Assembly (NCBI GenBank): GCA_965263355.1
Contig: CBDHHL010000032.1
Span: forward strand, 3,424,001-3,488,000
Source of the DNA: Leptolyngbyaceae cyanobacterium
GTDB taxonomy: Bacteria > Cyanobacteriota > Cyanobacteriia > Phormidesmidales > Phormidesmidaceae
Length of the DNA stretch: 64,000 nucleotides
Direction: 5' to 3'
Shown: positions 3,525 through 51,542 of the stretch, piece after piece
Position numbering within the stretch: position 1 is the first letter of the stretch
How the letters are laid out: each line of letters begins with the position of its first letter
Notes under the pieces: generated by a model
The model's database searches: none
What the model was told of the DNA's origin: nothing
Seen by the model: the letters and a program-made list of their open reading frames with translations, nothing else
Program-made: the position numbers and the translations under genes

Positions 3525-4492
3525 ATGACTTTACCCACTGGCCATTCCATACCCCAAATGCAGCCACCCCTCTCCCCCCGCGAAACGCTGCCTACCATGT
3601 ATGACCTGCCCAGCGAATTCCCTGAGGAGCCCGGTTTGCCTGACGAATTTCATGATTACCAACCCCAGCTTTTGAGCCGCACCCTATCCCTAGATGTCTG
3701 TGCTGCCGATAATCGCTTCACTGGGACAGATATTAATGTTTACTATGATGTTCACCATCCCCTGTGGCACAAGCGTCCGGATTGGTTTTTGGCACTGAAC
3801 GTTCCCCGTCTATATGATGGCCATGACTTACGCCAGAGCTATGTGGTTTGGCAAGAAGGACAGGCACCCACCATTGTGGTTGAGTTTCTCTCCCCCAAGA
3901 CTGAAAAGGAAGATTTGGGGCGGTTTTACAGGGAAAGCGACTTGATTGAAGACAGCAGTCCAGACCCCGTAGAAGCATCTCAGAACGGTTCAAAGCAAAA
4001 GCCTCCAGCTAAGTTTATTGTCTATGAGCGCTATCTGCGAGTGCCCCATTACCTCGTCTACAGTCGCTACACCAAGCGATTACGCTACTTCAAGCTAGTG
4101 GGCGTTCGCTATGAAGAGCAAACAGTGCAATCTGAGACACCCATGATTTGGTTTGAGGATCTCAACATTGGCTTAGGACTATGGGAAGGGTATTTTGAAG
4201 GTCTGCCTGAGTCCTGGTTACGGTGGTGTGATGCCCATGGAAACTGGTATTTCACTGACACCGAAAAAGCAGAAGCTGACAAGGCACAAGCAGAAGCTGA
4301 CAAGGCACAAGCAGAAGCTGACAAGGCACAAGCAGAAGCTGACAAGGCACAAGCAGAAGCTGAGAAGCTGACAAGGCACAAGCAGAAGCTGACAAGGCAC
4401 AAGCAGAAGCTGACAAGGCACAAGTACAACAGCAAGCTGAGCGTCTTGCTCAGCGTCTCAGAGAGCTGGGCATCGATCCAGAGTCCATCTAA
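3525..4492 (+). CDS. Uma2 family (DUF820) endonuclease-like protein with coiled-coil repeat tail; frameshifted near the 3' end
   Basis: LPTMYDLPSE, RPDWF, VEFLS and WLRW motifs. The canonical ending AERLAQRLRELGIDP lies in another frame ending at TAA 4490-4492, after an 8-bp duplication at 4356-4371. Confidence 0.85.
4268..4423 (+). repeat. ~7 x 21-bp tandem repeat (AGCAGAAGCTGACAAGGCACA; AEADKAQ) interrupted by an 8-bp duplication
   Basis: Read directly from the sequence. Confidence 0.93.
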
Positions 4493-5510: not shown

Positions 5511-7913
5511 CTATTCTTTATGCCAGAGCTTAATGGTTTTGTCGGAACTGGCGCTGGCCATGTATCGACCGTTGGGATGAATTGCGATCGCAGTCACCGA
5601 ATTACCATGTTCTGAAAACGTTTCCACCAGCTCCCCAGTTTTGGTATCCCAAACCTTGATACAGCTATCACCACCGGCACTAATGACAGTGCGTTGGTTG
5701 GGTGCGATCGCCACTGCATTAACCTCACCCCTATGCCCTTTGAGGGTATGGATTAAATTGCCAGACCGCAGACTCCAAAGCTTAATACATCGATCCTTAC
5801 TGGCACTCACAATCAAGCGACCATCCACACTAATAGCAATATCAGTCACTGAATTTAAGTGCCCCGACAATACACGAAAAACCTCGCCAGTACCCAGCTG
5901 CCAAAGCCTAATCTTATTATCAAAGCCACCGCTGACCACCAACGCTTCATCTGGGGAAATATCGACACAGCGAATCATTCCCGCATTACCTGACAGGACC
6001 TTGGCGAGTTTTCCCTGCTCTAAATTCCACACACCAACGGTACGATCTTCGCTGCCGCTAATCAATAAAGATCCTCGCCGACCGATGGCAATGGATGTCA
6101 CATCATGACGATGCCCCTTAAGTACATGTAAGAGTTGGCCGGTAGCTGTATTCCAAACTCGAATAGTGTCATCATCGCTGCAGCTGGCCAAAACCTGCCC
6201 TCGGGGGCTGAATGCCAAGCCGTTAATACCACGGGCGTGGCCAGTTAGCGACGTCGTTAGCGTGCCAGTTTGAATATCCCAAAGGTTAACTGTGTCATCT
6301 AGTCCGCCGCTAGCAAGTAATCTGTAATGCGGGTTAAATGCCACGGTTGAAACCCAAGAGCTATGACCCTCAAGGGTGTGGGTACATACCCAGTTAGATG
6401 GACCACTGCGAAGGCCCGAGGACTGAGATTTTGTGGGCGAACCGATCATCCCGCTAGTCGAACTACGGTTACCAGACGCCCCTAAGGCTGACGCTCCAGT
6501 GGCAGATCGTCCTAGATTAGTTGGTCCAGATGGTTTACCTGAAATTGGACCAACTAAGCCTTTAGATATAGGCCCTTTGGATATAGGCCCTTTGGATACA
6601 GGGCCTTTGGATACAGGGCCTTTGGATACAGGGCCTGATGGATTGCCTGGGGCTGATCTACCCTGCCCTTTGGATATAGGGCCTTGTGATACAGCTCCAG
6701 AATGTCTTCCTGTTGTCGGTTTGGATTGACCTGTTGATACAGCAGGCCCCGATTGTCGTTTATTGGGGAGGACGGCTCTAGGTTTAGAGATGGGGCTGGG
6801 CTGAGAGACAGAACCAGACTGTCCCGGCTGACTGGGGCGATTGGGTGGAGCAGTGGGAGGATGGTCCTGCCTGAACTCTGGGCTCAGCTCTTGGCTAATT
6901 AGCTGCTCACTTAAATTTCGGCTAACGTTTTGTCCTGTGCTGATGGCATCAGACATCAGACTGGTGTCATCAGGGCGCTGCCGAGTCCATCCAGGGACTG
7001 ACCTTTGATAGGCAGGTAATGCTTCCAATTCCTGGAAAACTTCTGCTGCTGTCCGATAGCGCTCGTTGATAAAATCTTTGAGCATGCGGTCTAAAATGGC
7101 AGCCAGTTCAGGGGTGACGGAACGACCGGCGGCAGCTAAATGCTCCTGCCAGAGCCAACGGCCTTCGAGGGGGCTATACAGTTTTTCTGGTTTGCGCCCC
7201 GTCATTAAACATATGCAAGTTGCCCCGAGGCTATAGAGGTCGCTGGATGGATAGGCTTCCCCGCTACGCAATTGTTCGATGGGTGAATAGCCCTCAGTCC
7301 CAATGCGAGTGCCTGTATGGTCCTTTTTATCCGAGAGCGATACCTGCAACTGCTTAGCGATGCCAAAGTCAATGAGAACAGGTTTATTGTCTTGCTGACG
7401 GCAAATAATATTGGTGGGATTGATATCCCGATGCACCACGTTACGCTCATGGATAAATTGCAGCACAGGCAGCATATGGTGCAATAAGCTACGAATTTTA
7501 GCCTCGTCAAAGGGACCTTCCTTTTTAACCTCCTGTAGCAGGGTGTTACCCTCAATTTCCTGCTGTACCAAATAAAAACTTCCTTGTTGCTCAAAATATG
7601 CCAGTAGCGATGGGATCTGTGGATGCTCTCCCAAATCGTTTAGACGTACAGCTTCTTGATTAAACAGGGTCAATGCCTTATCGAAGGTTTTATTACTAGT
7701 CTGGCGCGCAAATTGTTTGATGACACAGCGCGTATTGAGCCGGTCCACATCCTCAGCCAGGTAAGTTTTACCAAACCCACCTTGTCCCAAGGGCTTAATG
7801 GGGCGGTAGCGATTGCGGAGCAATTCTGTCAGAGGGCTGCCACACGATTGACACACAGTCACCCCGTCAGGGTTTACCGGTACCAAACAATCAGGATTTA
7901 AACAGCAGATCAT
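5511..7913 (-). CDS. Ser/Thr protein kinase with C-terminal WD40 repeats
   Basis: CLNPDC zinc ribbon, GQGGFGKTY, HRDINPTN, DFG, a Pro/Ser/Gly linker, then 7 GH..WD-type repeats. Confidence 0.95.
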   Translation of the reverse strand: MICCLNPDCLVPVNPDGVTVCQSCGSPLTELLRNRYRPIKPLGQGGFGKTYLAEDVDRLNTRCVIKQFARQTSNKTFDKALTLFNQEAVRLNDLGEHPQIPSLLAYFEQQGSFYLVQQEIEGNTLLQEVKKEGPFDEAKIRSLLHHMLPVLQFIHERNVVHRDINPTNIICRQQDNKPVLIDFGIAKQLQVSLSDKKDHTGTRIGTEGYSPIEQLRSGEAYPSSDLYSLGATCICLMTGRKPEKLYSPLEGRWLWQEHLAAAGRSVTPELAAILDRMLKDFINERYRTAAEVFQELEALPAYQRSVPGWTRQRPDDTSLMSDAISTGQNVSRNLSEQLISQELSPEFRQDHPPTAPPNRPSQPGQSGSVSQPSPISKPRAVLPNKRQSGPAVSTGQSKPTTGRHSGAVSQGPISKGQGRSAPGNPSGPVSKGPVSKGPVSKGPISKGPISKGLVGPISGKPSGPTNLGRSATGASALGASGNRSSTSGMIGSPTKSQSSGLRSGPSNWVCTHTLEGHSSWVSTVAFNPHYRLLASGGLDDTVNLWDIQTGTLTTSLTGHARGINGLAFSPRGQVLASCSDDDTIRVWNTATGQLLHVLKGHRHDVTSIAIGRRGSLLISGSEDRTVGVWNLEQGKLAKVLSGNAGMIRCVDISPDEALVVSGGFDNKIRLWQLGTGEVFRVLSGHLNSVTDIAISVDGRLIVSASKDRCIKLWSLRSGNLIHTLKGHRGEVNAVAIAPNQRTVISAGGDSCIKVWDTKTGELVETFSEHGNSVTAIAIHPNGRYMASASSDKTIKLWHKE
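6558..6635 (-). repeat. ~5 x 15-bp imperfect repeat encoding GP(V/I)SK in the kinase linker
   Basis: GGCCTTTGGATA(C/T)AG-type units are visible in the sequence. Confidence 0.85.
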
Positions 7914-28429: not shown

Positions 28430-31318
28430 TTATGCAAACACAAAGTTGTTGCTGGTCAGTGAATTTACATCTACGCCAACCAGGAGAACAGAGCTATCAT
28501 TACCCAGGACAATCAAGGCATCATTGCCAATCTGGTCAGTGGATCCCAATACAGCTTGAAAATCATTGAAGATCGAGCCAACATCAAGACTGTCATCAGT
28601 GATCGAGAAGTCTGTCACGATGTTGTTTCCAGCAAAGTCTTCAAATGTGAAGGTATCAAGGCCTAAACCTCCGGTTAGAAGATCATCATCTCCACCTCCA
28701 TTGAGGTTGTCGTTGCCGTCACCGCCAATAATCTCATCATTACCCAAGCCACCATTGACAATTACATCTTCTGAAGAGAGTTGGATAAAGCGATCACTGC
28801 CTGCCCCTAAACGGACGTCACCTTGAAGGGAACCTTCGTTCAAGATGTCGATATTACCCAGTGCGCCATCGGCATCAATGGCAAAACCATTACCGCCACT
28901 AATGGTGCCACTGTTGGTAATTTGACCATCAAAAATAATTCCAGCTTCAATTAGGATGCCTGCTTGTTGTTCCGAGGTGATGACACCATTTAGTTTGTTA
29001 GTGATAGTACCCGTAAATGTTGCTTCACTAAGGCCCGAGCCAACAAATAAACGGATACCGGCAGGGACATTGCGATCGCCTCTACCCTGAATAAAACCGC
29101 TGTTCGTGATATCAGCTGACAAGTCAAGATCATCAATGCCATCACCTAGGCCATTAGCTGTACCAACTTGTACTGAAATACCACTCCCAGCATTGCCTAT
29201 GCCTGCATCGATTGTACCCAACTGATTATTGATGGTGATATTGTCGGCAGTGCCATCTAGGTAAACTGTGCCATTTCGTTGGTTGCCAGTACCCAAAATG
29301 CTACCTTGATTAACCAGGGTAACATTGTCTCCGTCTATGTTAACGGCACGGCTACCGGATTCGATCTGACCAGAATTCACGATCTGTAGGTTATGGTCAG
29401 CGTTGCCAATGTAAAGACCGTTACGAGGCCCAGAGATCAGCTCGGTATTAACAATTTGACCGTCAAACGCCACACCATCTTCGATGACTACTCCACCTAA
29501 AAAGCCAGTATTGACGTCAGCGGTAATGGTGCCTTGGTTAACCACTGAACCAGAAACAATGGCGTCAGGCTGACCTGAACCATTGAAAAATCGTAGGCCA
29601 CTGGACCCATTCGACGCCACCCGAGCACCCTCGGCAAAGACCTCAGCCCCATCGCCCCGACCCTGGAGAAGTCCGCTATTGATGATGTTAATATTTTCAC
29701 TACTGGGGTCTTCAGCCGTGCCAACTTGAACAGAAATGGCATCGCCCAGATTACCTTCACCGGCATCAATGAGGCCTTGGTTATTGACAGTGATGTTGTC
29801 GCCAGTACCATCGATATAGACAGTGCCATTGCGTTGGTTGCCCGTGCCCACGATACTGCCTTGGTTTGAGAGAGTGACATTATCACCGTCTAAGTTGACA
29901 GCACGGCTGCCAGACTGAATTTGGCCAGAATTTAGCACTAAGAGATCGTGTTCGGCATTACCAATGTAGAGACCATTACGAGGGCCAGAGATTAAGTCAC
30001 TGTTAGTAATGCGGCCATCAAAGGCCACACCATCTTCAATGACTAAACCACCTAAAAAGCCAGTATTAACGTCAGCGGTGATGGTGCCTCGATTAATCAC
30101 TGAGCCAGAGACAGTGGCTTCAGATGCCCCCGAGCCATTAAAAAAGCGCAAACCACTGGAACCGTTTGATGCTACGCGAGCACCACTGGCAAACACATCC
30201 GGTCCATCGCCTCGCCCCTGGAGGAGGCCACTATTGACGATGTTAATAGCTTCACTGCTTGGGTCACCTGTGGCACCCACTTGAACAGAAATGGCATCGC
30301 CCAGATTGCCTTCACCTGCGTCAATCAGACCCTGGTTGTTTACAGTAACGTTGTCGGCAGTGCCATCCAGATAGATAGTGCCATTGCGCTGGTCGCCAGC
30401 GCCCACGATGTTGCCTTGATTGAGTAGGGTAACGTTATCCCCATCTAGGTTGACAACACGGCTACCCGACTCAATCTGACCAGAGTTGACGATTCGGAGA
30501 TTATGGTCAGCATTGCCAATGTAGAGACCGTTGCGAGGACCAGAGATCAGCCCGCTATTGGTAATGTTGCCATCAAAGGCCACGCCATCTTCAACAACCA
30601 GTCCCCCTAAAAAGCCAACATTGACTTCGGCAGTAATGGTGCCTCGGTTGGTCACTGAACCAGAGATGATTGACTCAGGTTGGCCCGAACCATTGAAAAA
30701 GCGTAGTCCGCTAGAGCCATTGGCTGCCACACGACTACCATTGGCAAAGACGTCAGGTCCATCACCCCGCCCTTGTAATAGCCCATTATTGGTAATGTTA
30801 ATATTTTCATTGCTAAGATCGCCAACAGCACCAACTTGGACAGATACGGCATCACCTAAGTTGCCCTCACCGGCATCGATGATGCCACTATTTAATAATC
30901 GCAGGTCATCGACGGTGCCATCTACATAGAGCGTGCCATTACGTTGATTACCTGTGCCTAAAATGTTGCCTGTATTTAAGATAAAAATGCCATCGCCGTC
31001 ACTGAGATCAACAGCACGGCTGCTAGATTGTATGGTGCCAAGATTTAATAATCTCAGATTATCTCCAGTGGAGCTGACACCATTTAAGTCTCCGGCAATA
31101 GAGCCTAAATTAAAAATAACAGCATTATCGCCACTAGCTTGAACAGCTGTGTTACCTGGATCCGATGCTGCAAGTGAGCCATTTGCTAGAACTGCTAATA
31201 ACGCCTGGTTGCCAGAGATATCGACAGCGGGTACACCCACCGAAGCTTGAAGATCTTCAAGAACAACTTCGACATCATTATCTAAGAGAGTAATAGAATT
31301 AGTAAGTTCGTTGGCCAT
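28430..31318 (-). CDS. Large Gly/Asn-rich beta-helix-like repeat protein with C-terminal RTX-type Ca-binding nonapeptides (probably secreted)
   Basis: 185-aa internal repeats; GGLGNDEII, GGDGNDNLN, GGGDDDLLT, GGLGLDTFT nonapeptides; no N-terminal signal peptide. Confidence 0.8.
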   Translation of the reverse strand: MANELTNSITLLDNDVEVVLEDLQASVGVPAVDISGNQALLAVLANGSLAASDPGNTAVQASGDNAVIFNLGSIAGDLNGVSSTGDNLRLLNLGTIQSSSRAVDLSDGDGIFILNTGNILGTGNQRNGTLYVDGTVDDLRLLNSGIIDAGEGNLGDAVSVQVGAVGDLSNENINITNNGLLQGRGDGPDVFANGSRVAANGSSGLRFFNGSGQPESIISGSVTNRGTITAEVNVGFLGGLVVEDGVAFDGNITNSGLISGPRNGLYIGNADHNLRIVNSGQIESGSRVVNLDGDNVTLLNQGNIVGAGDQRNGTIYLDGTADNVTVNNQGLIDAGEGNLGDAISVQVGATGDPSSEAINIVNSGLLQGRGDGPDVFASGARVASNGSSGLRFFNGSGASEATVSGSVINRGTITADVNTGFLGGLVIEDGVAFDGRITNSDLISGPRNGLYIGNAEHDLLVLNSGQIQSGSRAVNLDGDNVTLSNQGSIVGTGNQRNGTVYIDGTGDNITVNNQGLIDAGEGNLGDAISVQVGTAEDPSSENINIINSGLLQGRGDGAEVFAEGARVASNGSSGLRFFNGSGQPDAIVSGSVVNQGTITADVNTGFLGGVVIEDGVAFDGQIVNTELISGPRNGLYIGNADHNLQIVNSGQIESGSRAVNIDGDNVTLVNQGSILGTGNQRNGTVYLDGTADNITINNQLGTIDAGIGNAGSGISVQVGTANGLGDGIDDLDLSADITNSGFIQGRGDRNVPAGIRLFVGSGLSEATFTGTITNKLNGVITSEQQAGILIEAGIIFDGQITNSGTISGGNGFAIDADGALGNIDILNEGSLQGDVRLGAGSDRFIQLSSEDVIVNGGLGNDEIIGGDGNDNLNGGGDDDLLTGGLGLDTFTFEDFAGNNIVTDFSITDDSLDVGSIFNDFQAVLGSTDQIGNDALIVLGNDSSVLLVGVDVNSLTSNNFVFA
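29200..31050 (-). repeat. ~3.3 x 555-bp (185-aa) internal repeat
   Basis: QRNGT motif anchors (GTGCCATT) at 29268, 29823, 30378 and 30933, exactly 555 bp apart. Boundaries approximate. Confidence 0.85.
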
Positions 31319-44849: not shown

Positions 44850-45240
44850 AGGGGCGTTTTCCTTGGCGGGGTTGACCCGCGAAACGACAGGGAGGAAAGC
44901 GCCCAAAAAAGCTAGCCACCCTGCAACTAAAATCAGGGTGGCTGTAAAATGCTCACAGCTCACCAACTGGGCCGATCAGTTGGAGGGTTAGCGGGGTGGT
45001 TGTGTTGGCGCACTTCCATCTCGCGCAGCTAATTTTTTTGGGTGCGAAAAACAACTGAGGTCAGTTGCTTATTGTGTAGGCTATCAGGCCCAGATCGATG
45101 AGTCAAGCGGGCGTTTGAGGGGCTGTCATCGGTGGGTGTCATCGTTACAAACGGGTTTGATTTTCTGATTTTATTAACCTGCCACTAGAGCCAAAACCGA
45201 GCAAGTTTTGCCAATATGGAGTTTGAGCTGGGGTTAGGCG

Positions 45241-48087
45241 ATGGCAATGACCAAGGATGAGCTGCTGGCGTTGATTGACCAGGCGGCGGCGGAAGGGTGG
45301 ACGGAGTTGGACCTGGCGGGGCAGGGGCTGAGCGAACTGCCAGAGGAGATTGGCAAGCTGACGCAGCTGGAGCGGTTGATATTGGGAAAGGGGAAAAAGG
45401 ATAAGGATGGGAAGCAGCAATGGAGATTCGAATTCATTGATGGTAAACATCGCTCAGTTGCTCTGACAATCGGTAATAAGCTGACAGCTTTGCCAGCTTG
45501 CTTGAAACAGCTATCTGAGCTGCGTCACTTAGATATTAGCGGTAATCCAATTAGTCTAATACCTGAGAATATTAGTGAGTTATCTCAACTAAAAACATTT
45601 ATTGCTCTTAAGAGTAAATTAACCCAAATTCCGGATTCCATCGCCCAGCTAGCCTCTCTACAACAGCTCTACCTTAACCAAATTACAGAGATTCCGGATT
45701 CCATCGCCCAGCTAGCCTCTCTACAACAGCTCGACCTCAGCTCTAACCAAATTACAGAGATTCCGGATTCCATCGCCCAGCTAGCCTCTCTACAACAGCT
45801 CGACCTCAGCTCTAACCAAATTACAGAGATTCCGGATTCCATCGCCCAGCTAGCCTCTCTACAACAGCTCGACCTCAGCTCTAACCAAATTACAGAGATT
45901 CCGGATTCCATCGCCCAGCTAGCCTCTCTACAACAGCTCGACCTCAGCTCTAACCAAATTACAGAGATTCCGGATTCCATCGCCCAGCTAGCCTCTCTAC
46001 AACAGCTCGACCTCAGCGATAACCAAATTACAGAGATTCCGGATTCCATCGCCCAGCTAGCCTCTCTACAACAGCTCGACCTCAGCTCTAACCAAATTAC
46101 AGAGATTCCGGATTCCATCGCCCAGCTAGCCTCTCTACAACAGCTCGACCTCCGCTCTAACCAAATTACAGAGATTCCGGATTCCATCGCCCAGCTAGCC
46201 TCTCTACAACAGCTCTACCTCAGCTCTAACCAAATTACAGAGATTCCGGATTCCATCGCCCAGCTAGCCTCTCTACAACAGCTCGACCTCAGCTCTAACC
46301 AAATTACAGAGATTCCGGATTCCATCGCCCAGCTAGCCTCTCTACAACAGCTCGACCTCAGCGATAACCAAATTACAGAGATTCCGGATTCCATCGCCCA
46401 GCTAGCCTCTCTACAACAGCTCTACCTCAGCTCTAACCAAATTACAGAGATTCCGGATTCCATCGCCCAGCTAGCCTCTCTACAACAGCTCTACCTCCGC
46501 TATAACCAAATTACAGAGATTCCGGATTCCATCGCCCAGCTAGCCTCTCTACAACAGCTCTACCTCAGCTCTAACCAAATTACAGAGATTCCGGATTCCA
46601 TCGCCCAGCTAGCCTCTCTACAACAGCTCGACCTCAGCGATAACCAAATTACAGAGATTCCGGATTCCATCGCCCAGCTAGCCTCTCTACAACAGCTCTA
46701 CCTCAGCTCTAACCAAATTACAGAGATTCCGGATTCCATCGCCCAGCTAGCCTCTCTACAACAGCTCGACCTCAGCTCTAACCAAATTACAGAGATTCCG
46801 GATTCCATCGCCCAGCTAGCCTCTCTACAACAGCTCTACCTCCGCTATAACCAAATTACAGAGATTCCGGATTCCATCGCCCAGCTAGCCTCTCTACAAC
46901 AGCTCTACCTCCGCTATAACCAAATTACAGAGATTCCGGATTCCATCGCCCAGCTAGCCTCTCTACAACAGCTCTACCTCAGCTATAACCAAATTACAGA
47001 GATTCCGGATTCCATCGCCCAGCTAGCCTCTCTACAACAGCTCTACCTCCGCTATAACCAAATTACAGAGATTCCGGATTCCATCGCCCAGCTAGCCTCT
47101 CTACAACAGCTCGACCTCCGCTCTAACCAAATTACAGAGATTCCGGATTCCATCGCCCAGCTAGCCTCTCTACAACAGCTCGACCTCCGCTCTAACCAAA
47201 TTACAGAGATTCCGGATTCCATCGCCCAGCTAGCCTCTCTACAACAGCTCGACCTCCGCTATAACCAAATTACAGAGATTCCAGGCAGTTTAGAAAGCTT
47301 AGAACAACTACAAAGACTCGATGTTCGTCATAATCCACTACCCATTGCACCAGAAATCCTGGGTCCTCCAGAAGACTATGAAGAACCAGGGCCAGTTTCC
47401 GGCATCTTCAACTACTGCCGCCAGCTCCGCAGCGGCGAAGTCCGCCCCCTTAATGAAGCCAAACTTATCCTGGTTGGCCAGGGCAGCGTCGGCAAAACAT
47501 CCCTGATCAACCGACTGATCGAAGATTCCTTTAACCCCAACGAAGCACAAACCGACGGTCTCAATGTGTCCAACTGGGCCATCAACGTCAACACCAAAGA
47601 CGTGCGCCTCAACGTCTGGGACTTTGGCGGTCAAGAAATCTATCATGCCACTCACCAATTCTTTCTGACTAAGCGCAGCCTTTATCTACTCGTCTGCAAC
47701 TGCCGCACCAGCGAAGAAGAAAACCGCCTCGACTACTGGCTCAAACTGATCAAAAGTTTCGGTGACGATGCCCCCGTCATTATCGTTGGCAACAAGCGTG
47801 ACGAACAACCCCTCGATATCAACCGAAAAGCTTTACGGAGCAAATACCCCAACATTAAAGACATTATTGAAACTTCCTGTCAAACTGGCGATGGCATCAA
47901 AGAACTGAACCAAGCAATTAATAAAGAGGTAGGACAGCTTAAAGAAGTGTACGATCTGCTTCCTCTTTCTTGGTTTGAAGTCAAAGAACACCTAGAAAAT
48001 TTAGACAAAGACTTTATCAAATACTCCAAATACGAAAGCATTTGTGACCAGCAAGGCATCGAAGAAGAAAAAGATCAAACCCAGTAA
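45241..48087 (+). CDS. Roco protein, N-terminal part: capping helix + LRR array + Roc GTPase + start of COR
   Basis: MTKDELLALIDQAAAEGWTELDL cap, 23-aa LRRs, GQGSVGKT P-loop, WDFGGQ, NKRD; stops at TAATAA 48085-48090. Confidence 0.95.
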   Translation: MAMTKDELLALIDQAAAEGWTELDLAGQGLSELPEEIGKLTQLERLILGKGKKDKDGKQQWRFEFIDGKHRSVALTIGNKLTALPACLKQLSELRHLDISGNPISLIPENISELSQLKTFIALKSKLTQIPDSIAQLASLQQLYLNQITEIPDSIAQLASLQQLDLSSNQITEIPDSIAQLASLQQLDLSSNQITEIPDSIAQLASLQQLDLSSNQITEIPDSIAQLASLQQLDLSSNQITEIPDSIAQLASLQQLDLSDNQITEIPDSIAQLASLQQLDLSSNQITEIPDSIAQLASLQQLDLRSNQITEIPDSIAQLASLQQLYLSSNQITEIPDSIAQLASLQQLDLSSNQITEIPDSIAQLASLQQLDLSDNQITEIPDSIAQLASLQQLYLSSNQITEIPDSIAQLASLQQLYLRYNQITEIPDSIAQLASLQQLYLSSNQITEIPDSIAQLASLQQLDLSDNQITEIPDSIAQLASLQQLYLSSNQITEIPDSIAQLASLQQLDLSSNQITEIPDSIAQLASLQQLYLRYNQITEIPDSIAQLASLQQLYLRYNQITEIPDSIAQLASLQQLYLSYNQITEIPDSIAQLASLQQLYLRYNQITEIPDSIAQLASLQQLDLRSNQITEIPDSIAQLASLQQLDLRSNQITEIPDSIAQLASLQQLDLRYNQITEIPGSLESLEQLQRLDVRHNPLPIAPEILGPPEDYEEPGPVSGIFNYCRQLRSGEVRPLNEAKLILVGQGSVGKTSLINRLIEDSFNPNEAQTDGLNVSNWAINVNTKDVRLNVWDFGGQEIYHATHQFFLTKRSLYLLVCNCRTSEEENRLDYWLKLIKSFGDDAPVIIVGNKRDEQPLDINRKALRSKYPNIKDIIETSCQTGDGIKELNQAINKEVGQLKEVYDLLPLSWFEVKEHLENLDKDFIKYSKYESICDQQGIEEEKDQTQ
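45628..47282 (+). repeat. 24 tandem LRR units of 69 bp (first unit 63 bp), identical except at 4 positions
   Basis: Unit ATTCCGGATTCCATCGCCCAGCTAGCCTCTCTACAACAGCTC[G/T]ACCTC[A/C]GC[TCT/TAT/GAT]AACCAAATTACAGAG; 63+23x69 bp matches the span. Confidence 0.97.
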
Positions 48088-48090
48088 TAA

Positions 48091-49026
48091 TTGGGCTGCT
48101 TCACAACCTGGGTCTGGTACTCAACTACAGCCGACCATCCTCTTTTAAAATACACTAACGTCCTAAATCCAGACTGGGTTACCACAGGCATTTATACGTT
48201 GCTGAGTGATGAGAACTTAAAGACAAAATCTAAAGGTCAACTAACCCTTGATGACCTTAGTCGGGTACTAAATCCCCAACGCTATCCAGTACATCGCCAT
48301 CATTACCTCATCGAACTGATGAAAGAATTCAAGCTATGCTTTGAACTGCCAGACTGCAAGCCTGCTCGATATCTTATTCCTGGCATCCTACCCAAAGAAG
48401 AACCAGAAGAGACTGACTTAGAAGGAGAAACTCTAAATTTCCAATATCATTACAGCGTATTGCCAGATAGTGTTATCTCGCGTTTCATCGTATACATGCA
48501 CGAAAAAATCCATAAGGAAACCTACTGGCGCAGCGGAGTAATGCTTGCTCACACTGAAGGCAATGAGGTTTACAATATTGCCCGCATCAAAGCCGACCCT
48601 GCCGACAATAAAATCTTTATCGCTGTTAGTGGCAAGGAATCTACCCGACGTACCTTTCTCGGAATGATCCGTGATGTATTCAACAAAAAAGTACACATCA
48701 ATTTGACTAAACCTACTGAGTGGGTTCCTGTCCCTGATCATCCCGATCATCCACCACTCGATTACCAAGAACTGCTTGGTCTAGAAGACATGAACGAACA
48801 AAACGTAGTCATCGGCAAACTCAAACTCAAACTAAACCTACGCCAACTCCTCGACGGCTACGAACCCATCGAAATCCGCAGACTCAAACAAAAAGGAGTA
48901 GACATAGATAGTACTGGCGACGGAATCAATATTTCCGTCACCGATGCCCGCACCAAAATCATCCAACAAGGCGATGGCGACAATGTTGCCGGAGACTTAA
49001 TAGAAGGGAATAAAACAATCACATAA
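48091..49026 (+). pseudogene. Roco protein C-terminal part (COR domain + G-D-repeat tail), separated from the N-terminal part by indels and stops
   Basis: VLNPDWVTTGIY, LMKEFKLCF, ISRFIV, YWRSGV are COR motifs. The linking motif LLHNLGLVLNY lies in a shifted frame at 48087-48131. Confidence 0.85.
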
Positions 49027-49069: not shown

Positions 49070-49639
49070 ATGACCTCATTAGTCCGCCTACAGCTACTCG
49101 ACGTCGTCGCCCTCAAAGCCGACCTACCAGACCATAATCTCACCGCAGGCCAGGTCGGCACCCTGGTCGAAGAATTAGCCCCTAACGTCTACGAAGTCGA
49201 ATTCAGCGACGACCATGGCCAAACCTACGCCATGCTACCCCTCCACACCGACCAAGTCCTTAAACTAAGCTACACACCAGGAGAACCAACCATGGGCAAC
49301 ACTATCAATCAATACGGCTCTGGCGACAACATCGCAGGCGACAAAGTCATGGGCGACAAAATCAATACCCAAATCAACAACAGCCAGGACTTAGCCCAGG
49401 CCGCTAAAGCCATCAAAGACCTCCTCACCCAACTCGAAACCGACTACGACCCCACCACCCCCGTCGGTCAAACCATGATGACCGCCAAACTCATCGAATC
49501 CGTCGATAACAACCCCACCCTCAAAGCCCGAGTCGTCAACGCCCTCAAAGAAGGCGGTAGCACGGCCCTTGAAGAAGCCATTGATCATCCGATAGTAAAA
49601 CCTGTGGTCGCTGCTCTCAAAGGCTTTATGGATGCATGA
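49070..49639 (+). CDS. DUF4926-like domain + GDN/GDK pseudo-repeat motif + C-terminal helical domain
   Basis: LLDVVAL...GQVGTLVE...YEVEFSD..G.TYAM (DUF4926-like), then NQYGSGDNIAGDKVMGDK, then LAQAAKAIKDLL...NPTLKARVVNALKEGG helices. Confidence 0.85.
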   Translation: MTSLVRLQLLDVVALKADLPDHNLTAGQVGTLVEELAPNVYEVEFSDDHGQTYAMLPLHTDQVLKLSYTPGEPTMGNTINQYGSGDNIAGDKVMGDKINTQINNSQDLAQAAKAIKDLLTQLETDYDPTTPVGQTMMTAKLIESVDNNPTLKARVVNALKEGGSTALEEAIDHPIVKPVVAALKGFMDA

Positions 49640-50269: not shown

Positions 50270-50411
50270 TGTTTGGTTTCAGATTAAATTACCCCTATGT
50301 ATCAGCAACCCTCTCCAACCGTAGTCACCCTGGAAGTCGGCACTCACTGGCACAGTGCCTACGCCCTTAGTCATCAGTTCAGCAAGCGCCATTCACCAAA
50401 CACCTAAAGCC

Positions 50412-51542
50412 ATGTCATCTCTGCCATCCCTATTTGTCTCCCACGGAGCACCCGATTTACCAATTCGGACAGGGTCAACCCAAACATTTCTGCAACAGTT
50501 GGCCAGCACAATGCCCACACCACAGGCCATCTTGATTATCTCGGCCCACTGGCTTACAGCTGTCCCTACCGTCAGCACCCACCCAAACCCTAAAACGGTC
50601 TATGACTTTGGCGGTTTTTCACCTGAGTTATATCAGCTTAGGTATCCAGCTGCTGGTGCTCCAGATGTCGCCAACCGGGTGGCAGAGTTACTTACCGCAG
50701 CCAACCTACCAGCCCAGACCAATGCTACTCGGGGATTTGATCACGGTATTTGGACTCCCTTGATCTTGATCTATCCAGATGCTGAAATACCGGTTGTCCA
50801 AATGTCACTCCAACCGACTCAAGGACCGGAATATCATCTAAAGCTCGGTCAACTATTAGCCCCATTGCGGTCAGAAGGCATTGCTGACACCAACTATACG
50901 GGTCGGGTCACCGTTCCTGTTCTTTGGGACAAAAAGACCCAGACCATTGTTAATAATGAGTCTCGTCAGATCATTCAAATGTTGAACTCAGAGTTTAATG
51001 AATTTGCAACATTTCCAGCACGAGACTTCTACCCTGAGAATTTACGCCCTGAAATTGATCGGGTGATGGATAGTATTTATCAGCCCATTAACAATGGTGT
51101 TTATCGGAGTGGGTTTGCTGCTTCCCAAACGGCTTATAACGCAGCCGTCACAGAACTATTCGCGGCCCTAGACCATTGGGAAGATATTTTAGCAAAACAG
51201 CGCTACCTATGCGGCGATCAGCTGACGTTAGCAGATTGGTGTTTATTTACTACCCTTTTTCGCTTTGATTTGGCTTATTACGGTTTGTTTAAGTGCAATC
51301 TCAAACGACTCGTTGACTATCCTAATCTGTGGGCCTATTGCCGCGAACTGTACCAACTAGAGAGAAACTGGTGCAACATCGACCATGTTAAACAGCTTTA
51401 CTATGCTGGTCTACCTGAACTTAATCCTGGTGGCATTATCCCGGTGGGGCCAAAAATTGATTTTGAGCAGGCCCATGGTCGCGAGAGTGATAAGTTCTCT
51501 GAAATCGGCAATTTACTGGCCGATTGTTTGGCCACTCAGTAG
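50412..51542 (+). CDS. In-frame chimera: N-terminal DODA/LigB-type extradiol dioxygenase fragment fused to C-terminal glutathionyl-hydroquinone reductase (YqjG/ECM4) fragment
   Basis: LFVSHGAP, ISAHW, RGFDHG, LRSEGI, then abruptly ADTNYTGRVTVPVLWDKK, NNESRQI, INNGVYRSGF, TLFRFD. Confidence 0.85.
   Translation: MSSLPSLFVSHGAPDLPIRTGSTQTFLQQLASTMPTPQAILIISAHWLTAVPTVSTHPNPKTVYDFGGFSPELYQLRYPAAGAPDVANRVAELLTAANLPAQTNATRGFDHGIWTPLILIYPDAEIPVVQMSLQPTQGPEYHLKLGQLLAPLRSEGIADTNYTGRVTVPVLWDKKTQTIVNNESRQIIQMLNSEFNEFATFPARDFYPENLRPEIDRVMDSIYQPINNGVYRSGFAASQTAYNAAVTELFAALDHWEDILAKQRYLCGDQLTLADWCLFTTLFRFDLAYYGLFKCNLKRLVDYPNLWAYCRELYQLERNWCNIDHVKQLYYAGLPELNPGGIIPVGPKIDFEQAHGRESDKFSEIGNLLADCLATQ

Follow-up and report, generated by a model that had tools for sequence, protein, structure and literature searches.

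Near-identical leucine-rich repeats with a few diversified codons in a cyanobacterial Roco gene

Bacterial Roco proteins are structural models for LRRK2; to our knowledge, their own biological job is largely unknown. Treated here is a tandem array of leucine-rich repeat (LRR) units in a Roco gene of a Leptolyngbyaceae cyanobacterium, which lies in a window of 64,000 nucleotides (the whole stretch analysed: assembly GCA_965263355.1, contig CBDHHL010000032.1, positions 3,424,001 to 3,488,000 of the forward strand). Several described systems come close to it. In fungi, the WD40 repeats of the HNWD genes het-d and het-e combine repeat homogenization with diversifying selection (Paoletti 2007; PMC1805685), with four codons per repeat under such selection on the binding face (PMC1805685, PMC12222747). 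The LRRs of brown-algal ROCO proteins show positive selection on the concave face and shuffled units (Zambounis 2012; PMC3341825). Prokaryotic LRR-AP-GTPase-COR proteins with rapidly evolving LRRs are predicted counter-invader systems (Kaur et al. 2021; PMC8195603). The mechanism considered below is already known from the fungal HNWD and brown-algal ROCO genes; the pattern in the cyanobacterial genes is real and family-wide.

How does the locus compare? It resembles the systems of Kaur et al. in its LRR, AP-GTPase and COR parts, its rapidly evolving LRRs and its variable C-terminal module, and cyanobacterial members are listed there (PMC8195603); unlike them, its tail is a short motif that is matched in the next gene. 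The parts of that paper covered hold no codon-level repeat analysis, and its supplement files 1-12 (file 4 in part) give 0 matches for DUF4926, a domain found in the gene downstream of the Roco. With the Chlorobium tepidum-type Roco structures (6hlu, 8r4b, 4wnr) and LRRK2 it shares LRR-Roc-COR and intact G motifs, but it has 24 near-identical LRRs and no kinase domain. Concerted evolution and high internal conservation recall het-d and het-e (PMC1805685, PMC12222747). The fungal genes, however, join WD40 to NACHT, an architecture that a Pfam domain scan does not find in the window Roco, and exchange repeats among about 10 loci; here bacterial LRRs are joined to Roc-COR, and full copies of the unit were found in relatives' genomes only within the arrays. 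The brown-algal genes are likewise ROCO genes with concave-face LRR diversification, but there each LRR is a 72-nt exon, subject to exon shuffling and splicing (PMC3341825), whereas the window array is an intron-less 69-nt tandem of far higher identity. In the literature covered (figures, preprint supplements and subscription papers were outside its scope), neither a Roco-linked motif pair nor an analysis of bacterial Roco LRR arrays at codon level was found.

The array and its gene

The array begins at 45628 and has 24 units: a first, shortened one (45628..45690, + strand; 63 nt, 21 aa, codons 17-18 missing) and 23 full units of 69 nt (45691..47277, + strand), delimited by Tandem Repeats Finder (period 69, 24.1 copies, 97% matches), by unit cutting and with a solenoid model. 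The framework of the full units is invariant. Variation is confined to 4 nt of 69, namely nt 43 (G in 14 units, T in 9), nt 49 (A15/C8), nt 52 (T20/G3) and nt 53 (C14/A9), and these alter codons 15 (D/Y), 17 (S/R) and 18 (S/D/Y). Seven unit codes result at the three codons: DSS in 7 units, YSS in 4, YRY in 4, DSD in 3, DRS in 3, and YSY and DRY in 1 each. Cutting the array at the repeat start reproduced exactly the 23 full units, the number of variable nt, the codes and the counts of a preliminary description made from the sequence.

That description also laid weight on the lack of synonymous variation. The count is right, but as a signal it is weak by itself: the unit has 202 possible non-stop single changes, of which 50 are synonymous, and four changes would all be non-synonymous with P=0.32, which has no significance alone. 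The signal lies in the clustering of all four within codons 13/15/17/18, the x codons of LxxLxLxxN (P=4e-4); this becomes P=0.018 if framework replacements are assumed to be purged and P=0.046 if six exposed codons are allowed. The claimed N- to C-terminal polarity stands for Arg17 (p=0.003) and Tyr18 (p=0.008), both biased towards the C-terminus, but not for Tyr15 (p=0.12) or Asp18 (p=0.57), where no trend is seen (4 tests). All four gametes are present for the site pairs 43-49, 43-53 and 49-53, just 4-10 nt apart.

Each of the four variable sites of the window is a G/T or A/C transversion, a class that makes up 17 of the 27 multi-copy variants in the 8 most uniform arrays of the family. A mutational or repair bias was considered and not adopted: family-wide, the class accounts for 39 of 119 variable-codon and 62 of 258 framework replacements, with no clear enrichment.

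Where do the variable residues lie? By established LRR geometry, residues 15, 17 and 18 have defined places in the repeat. An AlphaFold2 model covering units 11-24 plus the cap (25 alignment rows) has a pLDDT (predicted local distance difference test) of 97 and a strand at residues 13-15 of every unit; its best solved match is the Leptospira LRR 4u08 (TM score 0.93). Residue 15 is predicted to sit on the concave sheet, flanked by Leu14 and Leu16, both buried, with residues 17-18 on the loop before Asn19. Exposure itself, and with it the term 'ligand-contact', is what we infer from LRR geometry; the variable codons would line a putative binding face.

Domains and closest matches place the array in a cyanobacterial LRR-Roc-COR (Roco/AP-GTPase) gene of Leptothoe-like type, whose LRR part it forms. 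Neither the Roco identity of the gene nor its interruption in COR figures in the preliminary description. The 5' part (45241..48087, + strand; 948 aa) encodes an N-cap, the LRRs, the Roc GTPase and the start of COR-A, and ends at two TAA stops. The Roc domain occupies aa 741-897 (47461..47931, + strand; Pfam Roc E 5e-33, Ras E 8e-22), with motifs G1-G5 intact at aa 746, 770, 793, 851 and 877. The remaining COR-A, COR-B and the C-terminal tail follow in the same frame (48091..49026, + strand; Pfam COR-B E 5e-32, COR-A E 2e-21), so that both COR parts are present after Roc in one frame, interrupted in the window assembly; one high-scoring segment pair against P0016 crosses the break. Relatives in the PDB that share LRR-Roc-COR (E 1e-91) are 6hlu, 8r4b and LRRK2. 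Among the matches listed, the closest proteins come from Leptothoe/Leptolyngbyaceae, with L. kymatousa 88% identical over aa 680-948 and L. spongobia 81%, and the gene order AcrB-small gene-Roco is common to the window and loci L001 and L207. NCBIfam matches to type III effector LRR models were all below cut-off and reflect generic LRRs.

The interruption consists of compensating indels and two stops (48085-48090), which leave an out-of-frame stretch of 14 codons in COR-A (48086..48128, + strand), with three extra bases relative to contigs from sequencing runs. Two letters at 48086 are absent from the contigs of runs X1, X2 and X3, and one letter at 48128 is absent from those of X2 and X3; the X1 contig has three gaps, and its row shows none there. 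Because the run contigs are without the extra letters, the stretch probably reflects a mistake in assembly or consensus, unless it is private to the source. In COR, the window and the X1-X3 contigs disagree at 15-19 letters per kb, with identical flanks in X1, and two Roc-COR versions in the runs join the same array end and share 47253-47800. The array ends match run contigs with 0 differences (44940-45657 in X2, 47253-47634 in X1); none of the run pieces listed bridges the whole array. A T>G change at 46984 in the X1 and X3 contigs (one sample) would give a YSD unit, which is absent from the window's seven codes; this is a hint only.

Homogenization and selection across the family

From genomes, the best 80 of 569 loci were surveyed, and from metagenomes the best 80 of 577. 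Five or more units of 23 aa were present in 106 of these 160 loci, and in 30 of the 106 arrays the median unit identity was at least 0.85; 8 arrays from hand-picked family-search regions were added and one duplicate was dropped, giving 37 arrays. Over the 30 uniform arrays, the replacement-to-synonymous ratio pN/pS, a count of distinct codon variants against the modal codon with units less than 80% identical to the consensus dropped, reaches 2.23 at codons 13/15/17/18, as against 0.39 for 17 codons of the framework. The per-site replacement excess that the preliminary description had proposed to look for is thus present, count-based, in a few codons whose place on the predicted binding face follows from LRR geometry. 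In 34 of the 37 arrays these four positions of 23 hold more amino-acid variants than the other 19, and Ser, Asp and Tyr together make up 60% of 1263 residues at positions 15/17/18 of the family arrays.

Signs of exchange between units accompany this excess. In arrays of at least 8 units (L002 excluded), the resemblance between neighbouring units exceeds that of shuffled ones in 24 of 25 for the framework and in 23 of 25 for the variable codons. Four gametes occur among codons 15-18 in 26 of 33 arrays. In six Leptothoe-clade arrays the nearest framework neighbour lies in the unit's own array for 74 of 74 units, a pattern that is a mark of concerted evolution; units at least 80% identical and grouping by genome are seen in the window and its relatives. 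In many relatives the array sits at a contig end, but a like array is carried by the chromosome-scale contig L211. The earlier proposal, unit shuffling or gene conversion plus diversifying selection on concave-face codons, is therefore supported by the relatives rather than by the window array alone.

As a separate observation, the octamer GCGATCGC, which we take to be HIP1, occurs in at least half of the units in 15 of 38 uniform arrays; among intermediate arrays the count is 5 of 37, and among divergent ones 0 of 50, with kinship uncontrolled. Arrays with the octamer include L031, L045, L118, L211, L213, L215, L218, L225 and others; it is absent from the window unit.

Alleles at the variable codons are shared between species inside the homogenized arrays. 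A syntenic orthologue from another species, present on two contig ends (L002/L207; AcrB 89% identical), has 15 fixed differences from the window in 60 framework nt (25%), none of them within nt 34-62 (P=8e-4, uncorrected for protein constraint). It nevertheless toggles GAC/TAC, AGC/CGC and TCT/TAT exactly as the window does, and L185 has two of these three toggles. The variable-codon distance between the two species (0.174) matches that within each (0.17-0.19). Of interest is the Leu16 codon (nt 46-48), which lies between the variable sites: it is CTC in 36 of 38 uniform arrays, across genera, and in 91% of units in uniform arrays versus 38% in arrays below 0.70 identity, while the Leu8 and Leu11 codons vary. 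A synonymous change wedged between balanced sites could not sweep the array, and Leu16 may thus be frozen as CTC because selection balances the neighbouring sites. Transfer of short tracts between species is also compatible with these observations, as is recurrent mutation.

Unit codes, on the other hand, turn over fast between close relatives. The 40 closest pairs by Roc-COR identity were compared in register from the C-terminal end, a count sensitive to unit gain and loss. One pair was the same assembly filed twice (12/12 codes shared); of the 39 non-identical pairs, at 95-98% Roc-COR identity and from different species or metagenome contigs, 35 had no code in common and the other 4 had one. 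With units matched by best framework instead, 13 pairs gave identities of 0.85-1.00 in the framework versus 0.46-0.92 at the variable codons. In L104, L105, L010 and L015 nearly each unit has its own four-residue code despite Roc-COR sequences 96-98% identical, and the alphabets are far richer than the window's; L010 and L015 are from Microcoleus.

The C-terminal motif and the downstream gene

The Roco tail ends in the motif Q-x-G-x-G-D-N-[VI]-A-G-D (48946..49023, core 48976-48996, + strand; found by motif search), and a second copy lies in the next gene, open reading frame (ORF) 49070-49639. This ORF starts with a DUF4926 domain (49094..49258, + strand; Pfam E 2e-23), followed, right after a conserved internal Met, by the motif copy (49292..49372, core 49322-49342, + strand; its residues 1-16 are low-confidence in the structural model) and by an unnamed helical domain (49373..49636, + strand), a candidate effector that is fused directly to the Roco in some relatives. 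The conserved Met suggests two starts. These two are the only motif matches in the 64-kb window, versus 0.01 expected.

The pairing recurs among relatives. Of 172 distinct Roco tails, 31 terminate in the motif; a second copy lies within 1.5 kb in 29 of these, versus 5 of 133 tails without the motif (Fisher p=9e-25, uncorrected for kinship). In 8 of the 172 the motif is internal, mostly ahead of a fused helical domain. Behind the downstream copy comes one of two distinct helical domains, in some cases with additional GDK-x-Q repeats, and the C-terminal/downstream module is exchanged among relatives; DUF4926 stands in frame upstream of the downstream motif in 23 of 33 (16 under a strict pattern and another 7 on inspection by eye). 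For two genomes whose contigs are of chromosome scale, the Roco/downstream pair is the only place where the motif was found; it also occurs in pentapeptide-repeat and DUF2283 proteins.

What might the motif do? A short motif shared by adjacent genes is the genomic signature that defines amyloid signalling motifs (10.1101/2020.01.06.895854; 10.1101/2024.11.07.622273), and a short G/N/Q-rich motif common to a sensor and a small helical protein in adjacent genes recalls the bacterial amyloid signalling sequence (BASS) pairs and Bab/Agp BASS11. The motif also resembles the fungal GDQN pattern (PMC12261475), while the parts of PMC7159879 and PMC8086366 covered give no further information on it. Unlike in BASS, the polarity is reversed, with the motif at the sensor C-terminus and the partner N-terminus, and the sensor is a Roco; no Bell/HeLo-like domain was matched N-terminal to the motif, which here precedes the helical domain. 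As judged from the sequence, the shared motif is a candidate amyloid relay or homotypic adaptor. A monomer model, helical at residues 14-30 at low confidence, does not favour the amyloid reading. A motif-motif complex prediction scored 0.03, which weighs neither for nor against binding. For the helical domain, the best fold match has Z 4.8, no Pfam, NCBIfam or PADLOC name came above cut-off, and Atlas gives TCAD2 at 0.88, a lead only; the motif region matches the C-terminus of the GapS6a model weakly (E 0.017-0.65).

Taken together, we consider it likely that the array is the LRR solenoid of a Roco whose units are kept alike by recombination or conversion while concave-face codons are diversified, the protein serving as a fast-changing immune-type sensor. 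In such a scheme, host recombination between misaligned 69-bp units would copy short tracts, sweeping framework changes through the array and re-sorting the variable codons; selection by invader ligands would keep a small Ser/Asp/Tyr/Arg alphabet polymorphic, and the synonymous Leu codon lying between the selected sites would be frozen with them. Recombination and ligand selection are the part that we consider likeliest. Ligand binding would then switch the Roc-COR GTPase, exposing or clustering the C-terminal motif; that the Roco acts as a sensor we regard as slightly better than an even bet. Lastly, the motif might recruit the downstream helical protein via that protein's own copy, possibly as an amyloid, and so trigger defence, a step put forward quite tentatively.

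Other features of the window stand apart from this locus. ORF 50355-51542 joins a LigB-type dioxygenase N-terminal part (aa 48-174) to a glutathione S-transferase C-terminal part (aa 179-334) and would be either a deletion-fusion or a misjoin. Short coding tandem repeats occur in other genes at 676-765 (18 nt), 4267-4424 (21 nt) and 6558-6636 (15 nt), and a 962-aa ORF at 28430-31318 (- strand) has no Pfam match.

Alternatives and significance

Several points weigh against the scheme of recombination, ligand selection and sensing. The window array by itself makes a modest case for selection once framework constraint is allowed for (P=0.018-0.046), and the similarity of neighbouring units within it has p=0.115. 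The family pN/pS is a count of distinct codons rather than a tree-based dN/dS, the arrays are related, and codon 13 joined the variable set after data inspection. The four-gamete pattern may also be a product of misassembly or of recurrent mutation. In this assembly, which may mix two versions, the gene is interrupted, and PADLOC finds no match for the window locus. For most relatives the assembly was built from short reads, and such assemblies are unreliable at repeats of this kind, which they can leave out or invent (PMC12222747).

Could the array serve in kin or self recognition, or in the sensing of symbiotic partners, instead of defence against phages and other invaders? The fungal HNWD analogues act in allorecognition (PMC1805685), and, besides the lack of a defence-model match, the window neighbours of the Roco are housekeeping and transport genes, by ORF list and Pfam. 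Prokaryotic AP-GTPases, however, bear typical conflict effectors C-terminally (PMC8195603), and the swapping of the C-terminal/downstream module among relatives also speaks for conflict. We regard a role outside defence as unlikely, though it fares best among the alternatives.

Or are the units simply newly amplified, with the framework purged and the x positions merely tolerant, without diversifying selection or sensing? The chance values of the window array agree with such a neutral expansion (P=0.32 for four non-synonymous changes, and the constrained clustering values), and the stops at 48085-48090 could mean that this strain carries a pseudogene. A neutral history does not account for a pN/pS of 2.2 at these very codons, for alleles that persist across 25% framework divergence or for codes that turn over almost fully within 2-5% Roc-COR divergence, and we consider it improbable.

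A dedicated diversifier, either a diversity-generating retroelement or silent donor cassettes, might rewrite the variable codons. First and second codon positions vary while the third is mostly fixed, A is present at 186 of 230 variable sites, turnover is very fast, and reverse transcriptases are encoded in 4 of the 5 relatives' genomes tested, far from the Roco. The adenine-specific variation of a retroelement target was not seen, however: synonymous third-position A near variable codons varies in 4 of 46 cases versus 37 of 182 for other bases, the opposite of the retroelement expectation, and two of the four window sites, nt 43 (G/T) and nt 52 (T/G), are without A. A Pfam scan of 46 window ORFs brought up no reverse transcriptase (outside the scan were two large ORFs that look glycogen phosphorylase-like and AcrB-like), and 37 loci showed no crude reverse transcriptase motif. 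The preliminary description had suggested a genome search for donor LRR cassettes. In 10 relatives none turned up outside the arrays: the unit core lies only inside the arrays of G001-G003 and has no match in G004-G005, and in G143, G153, G154, G157 and G158 all unit matches are in the array save one 48-nt, 79% piece in G158. The retroelement reading was rejected on these grounds, a dedicated diversifier of either kind is very improbable, and the earlier idea that no dedicated enzyme is needed finds support in the relatives.

Least probable of all is an assembly artefact in which true unit types would stand in a number and order that stem from a collapsed or chimeric consensus of two alleles or paralogues: the unbridged array, the two Roc-COR versions at one array end, the COR break absent from run contigs, the letter at 46984 and the many relatives' contigs that stop within the array point that way, but both array ends match contigs with 0 differences, errors would not hit only three codons or recreate another species' alleles, and a like array lies on a chromosome-scale contig (L211). 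That the exact unit order is wrong in the assembly is a separate and less remote matter, although we think it rather unlikely.

What, then, may recombination and ligand selection in a Roco array mean for these cyanobacteria? The boldest prospect is an enzyme-free, rewritable antigen receptor in filamentous cyanobacteria, its LRR face re-sorted in growing populations and, once an invader is bound, a reverse-polarity amyloid relay leading to a swappable helical death effector encoded by the adjacent gene; as a whole, we consider this a long shot. The conserved Tyr/Ser/Asp/Arg codon alphabet comes near the minimal KMT code known from synthetic antibody libraries (PMC4641231): of the four KMT codons (Ala/Asp/Ser/Tyr), three occur at window codon 18. 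The array offers a natural repeat-protein binder scaffold. The pattern extends repeat diversification of the HNWD/ROCO style to bacterial LRRs, with codon-level numbers, and alleles are kept across species inside a homogenizing array. With a three-codon code open to change unit by unit, orthologues that draw on one alphabet and a defined partner downstream that carries the motif as well, the locus makes the role of a bacterial Roco testable.

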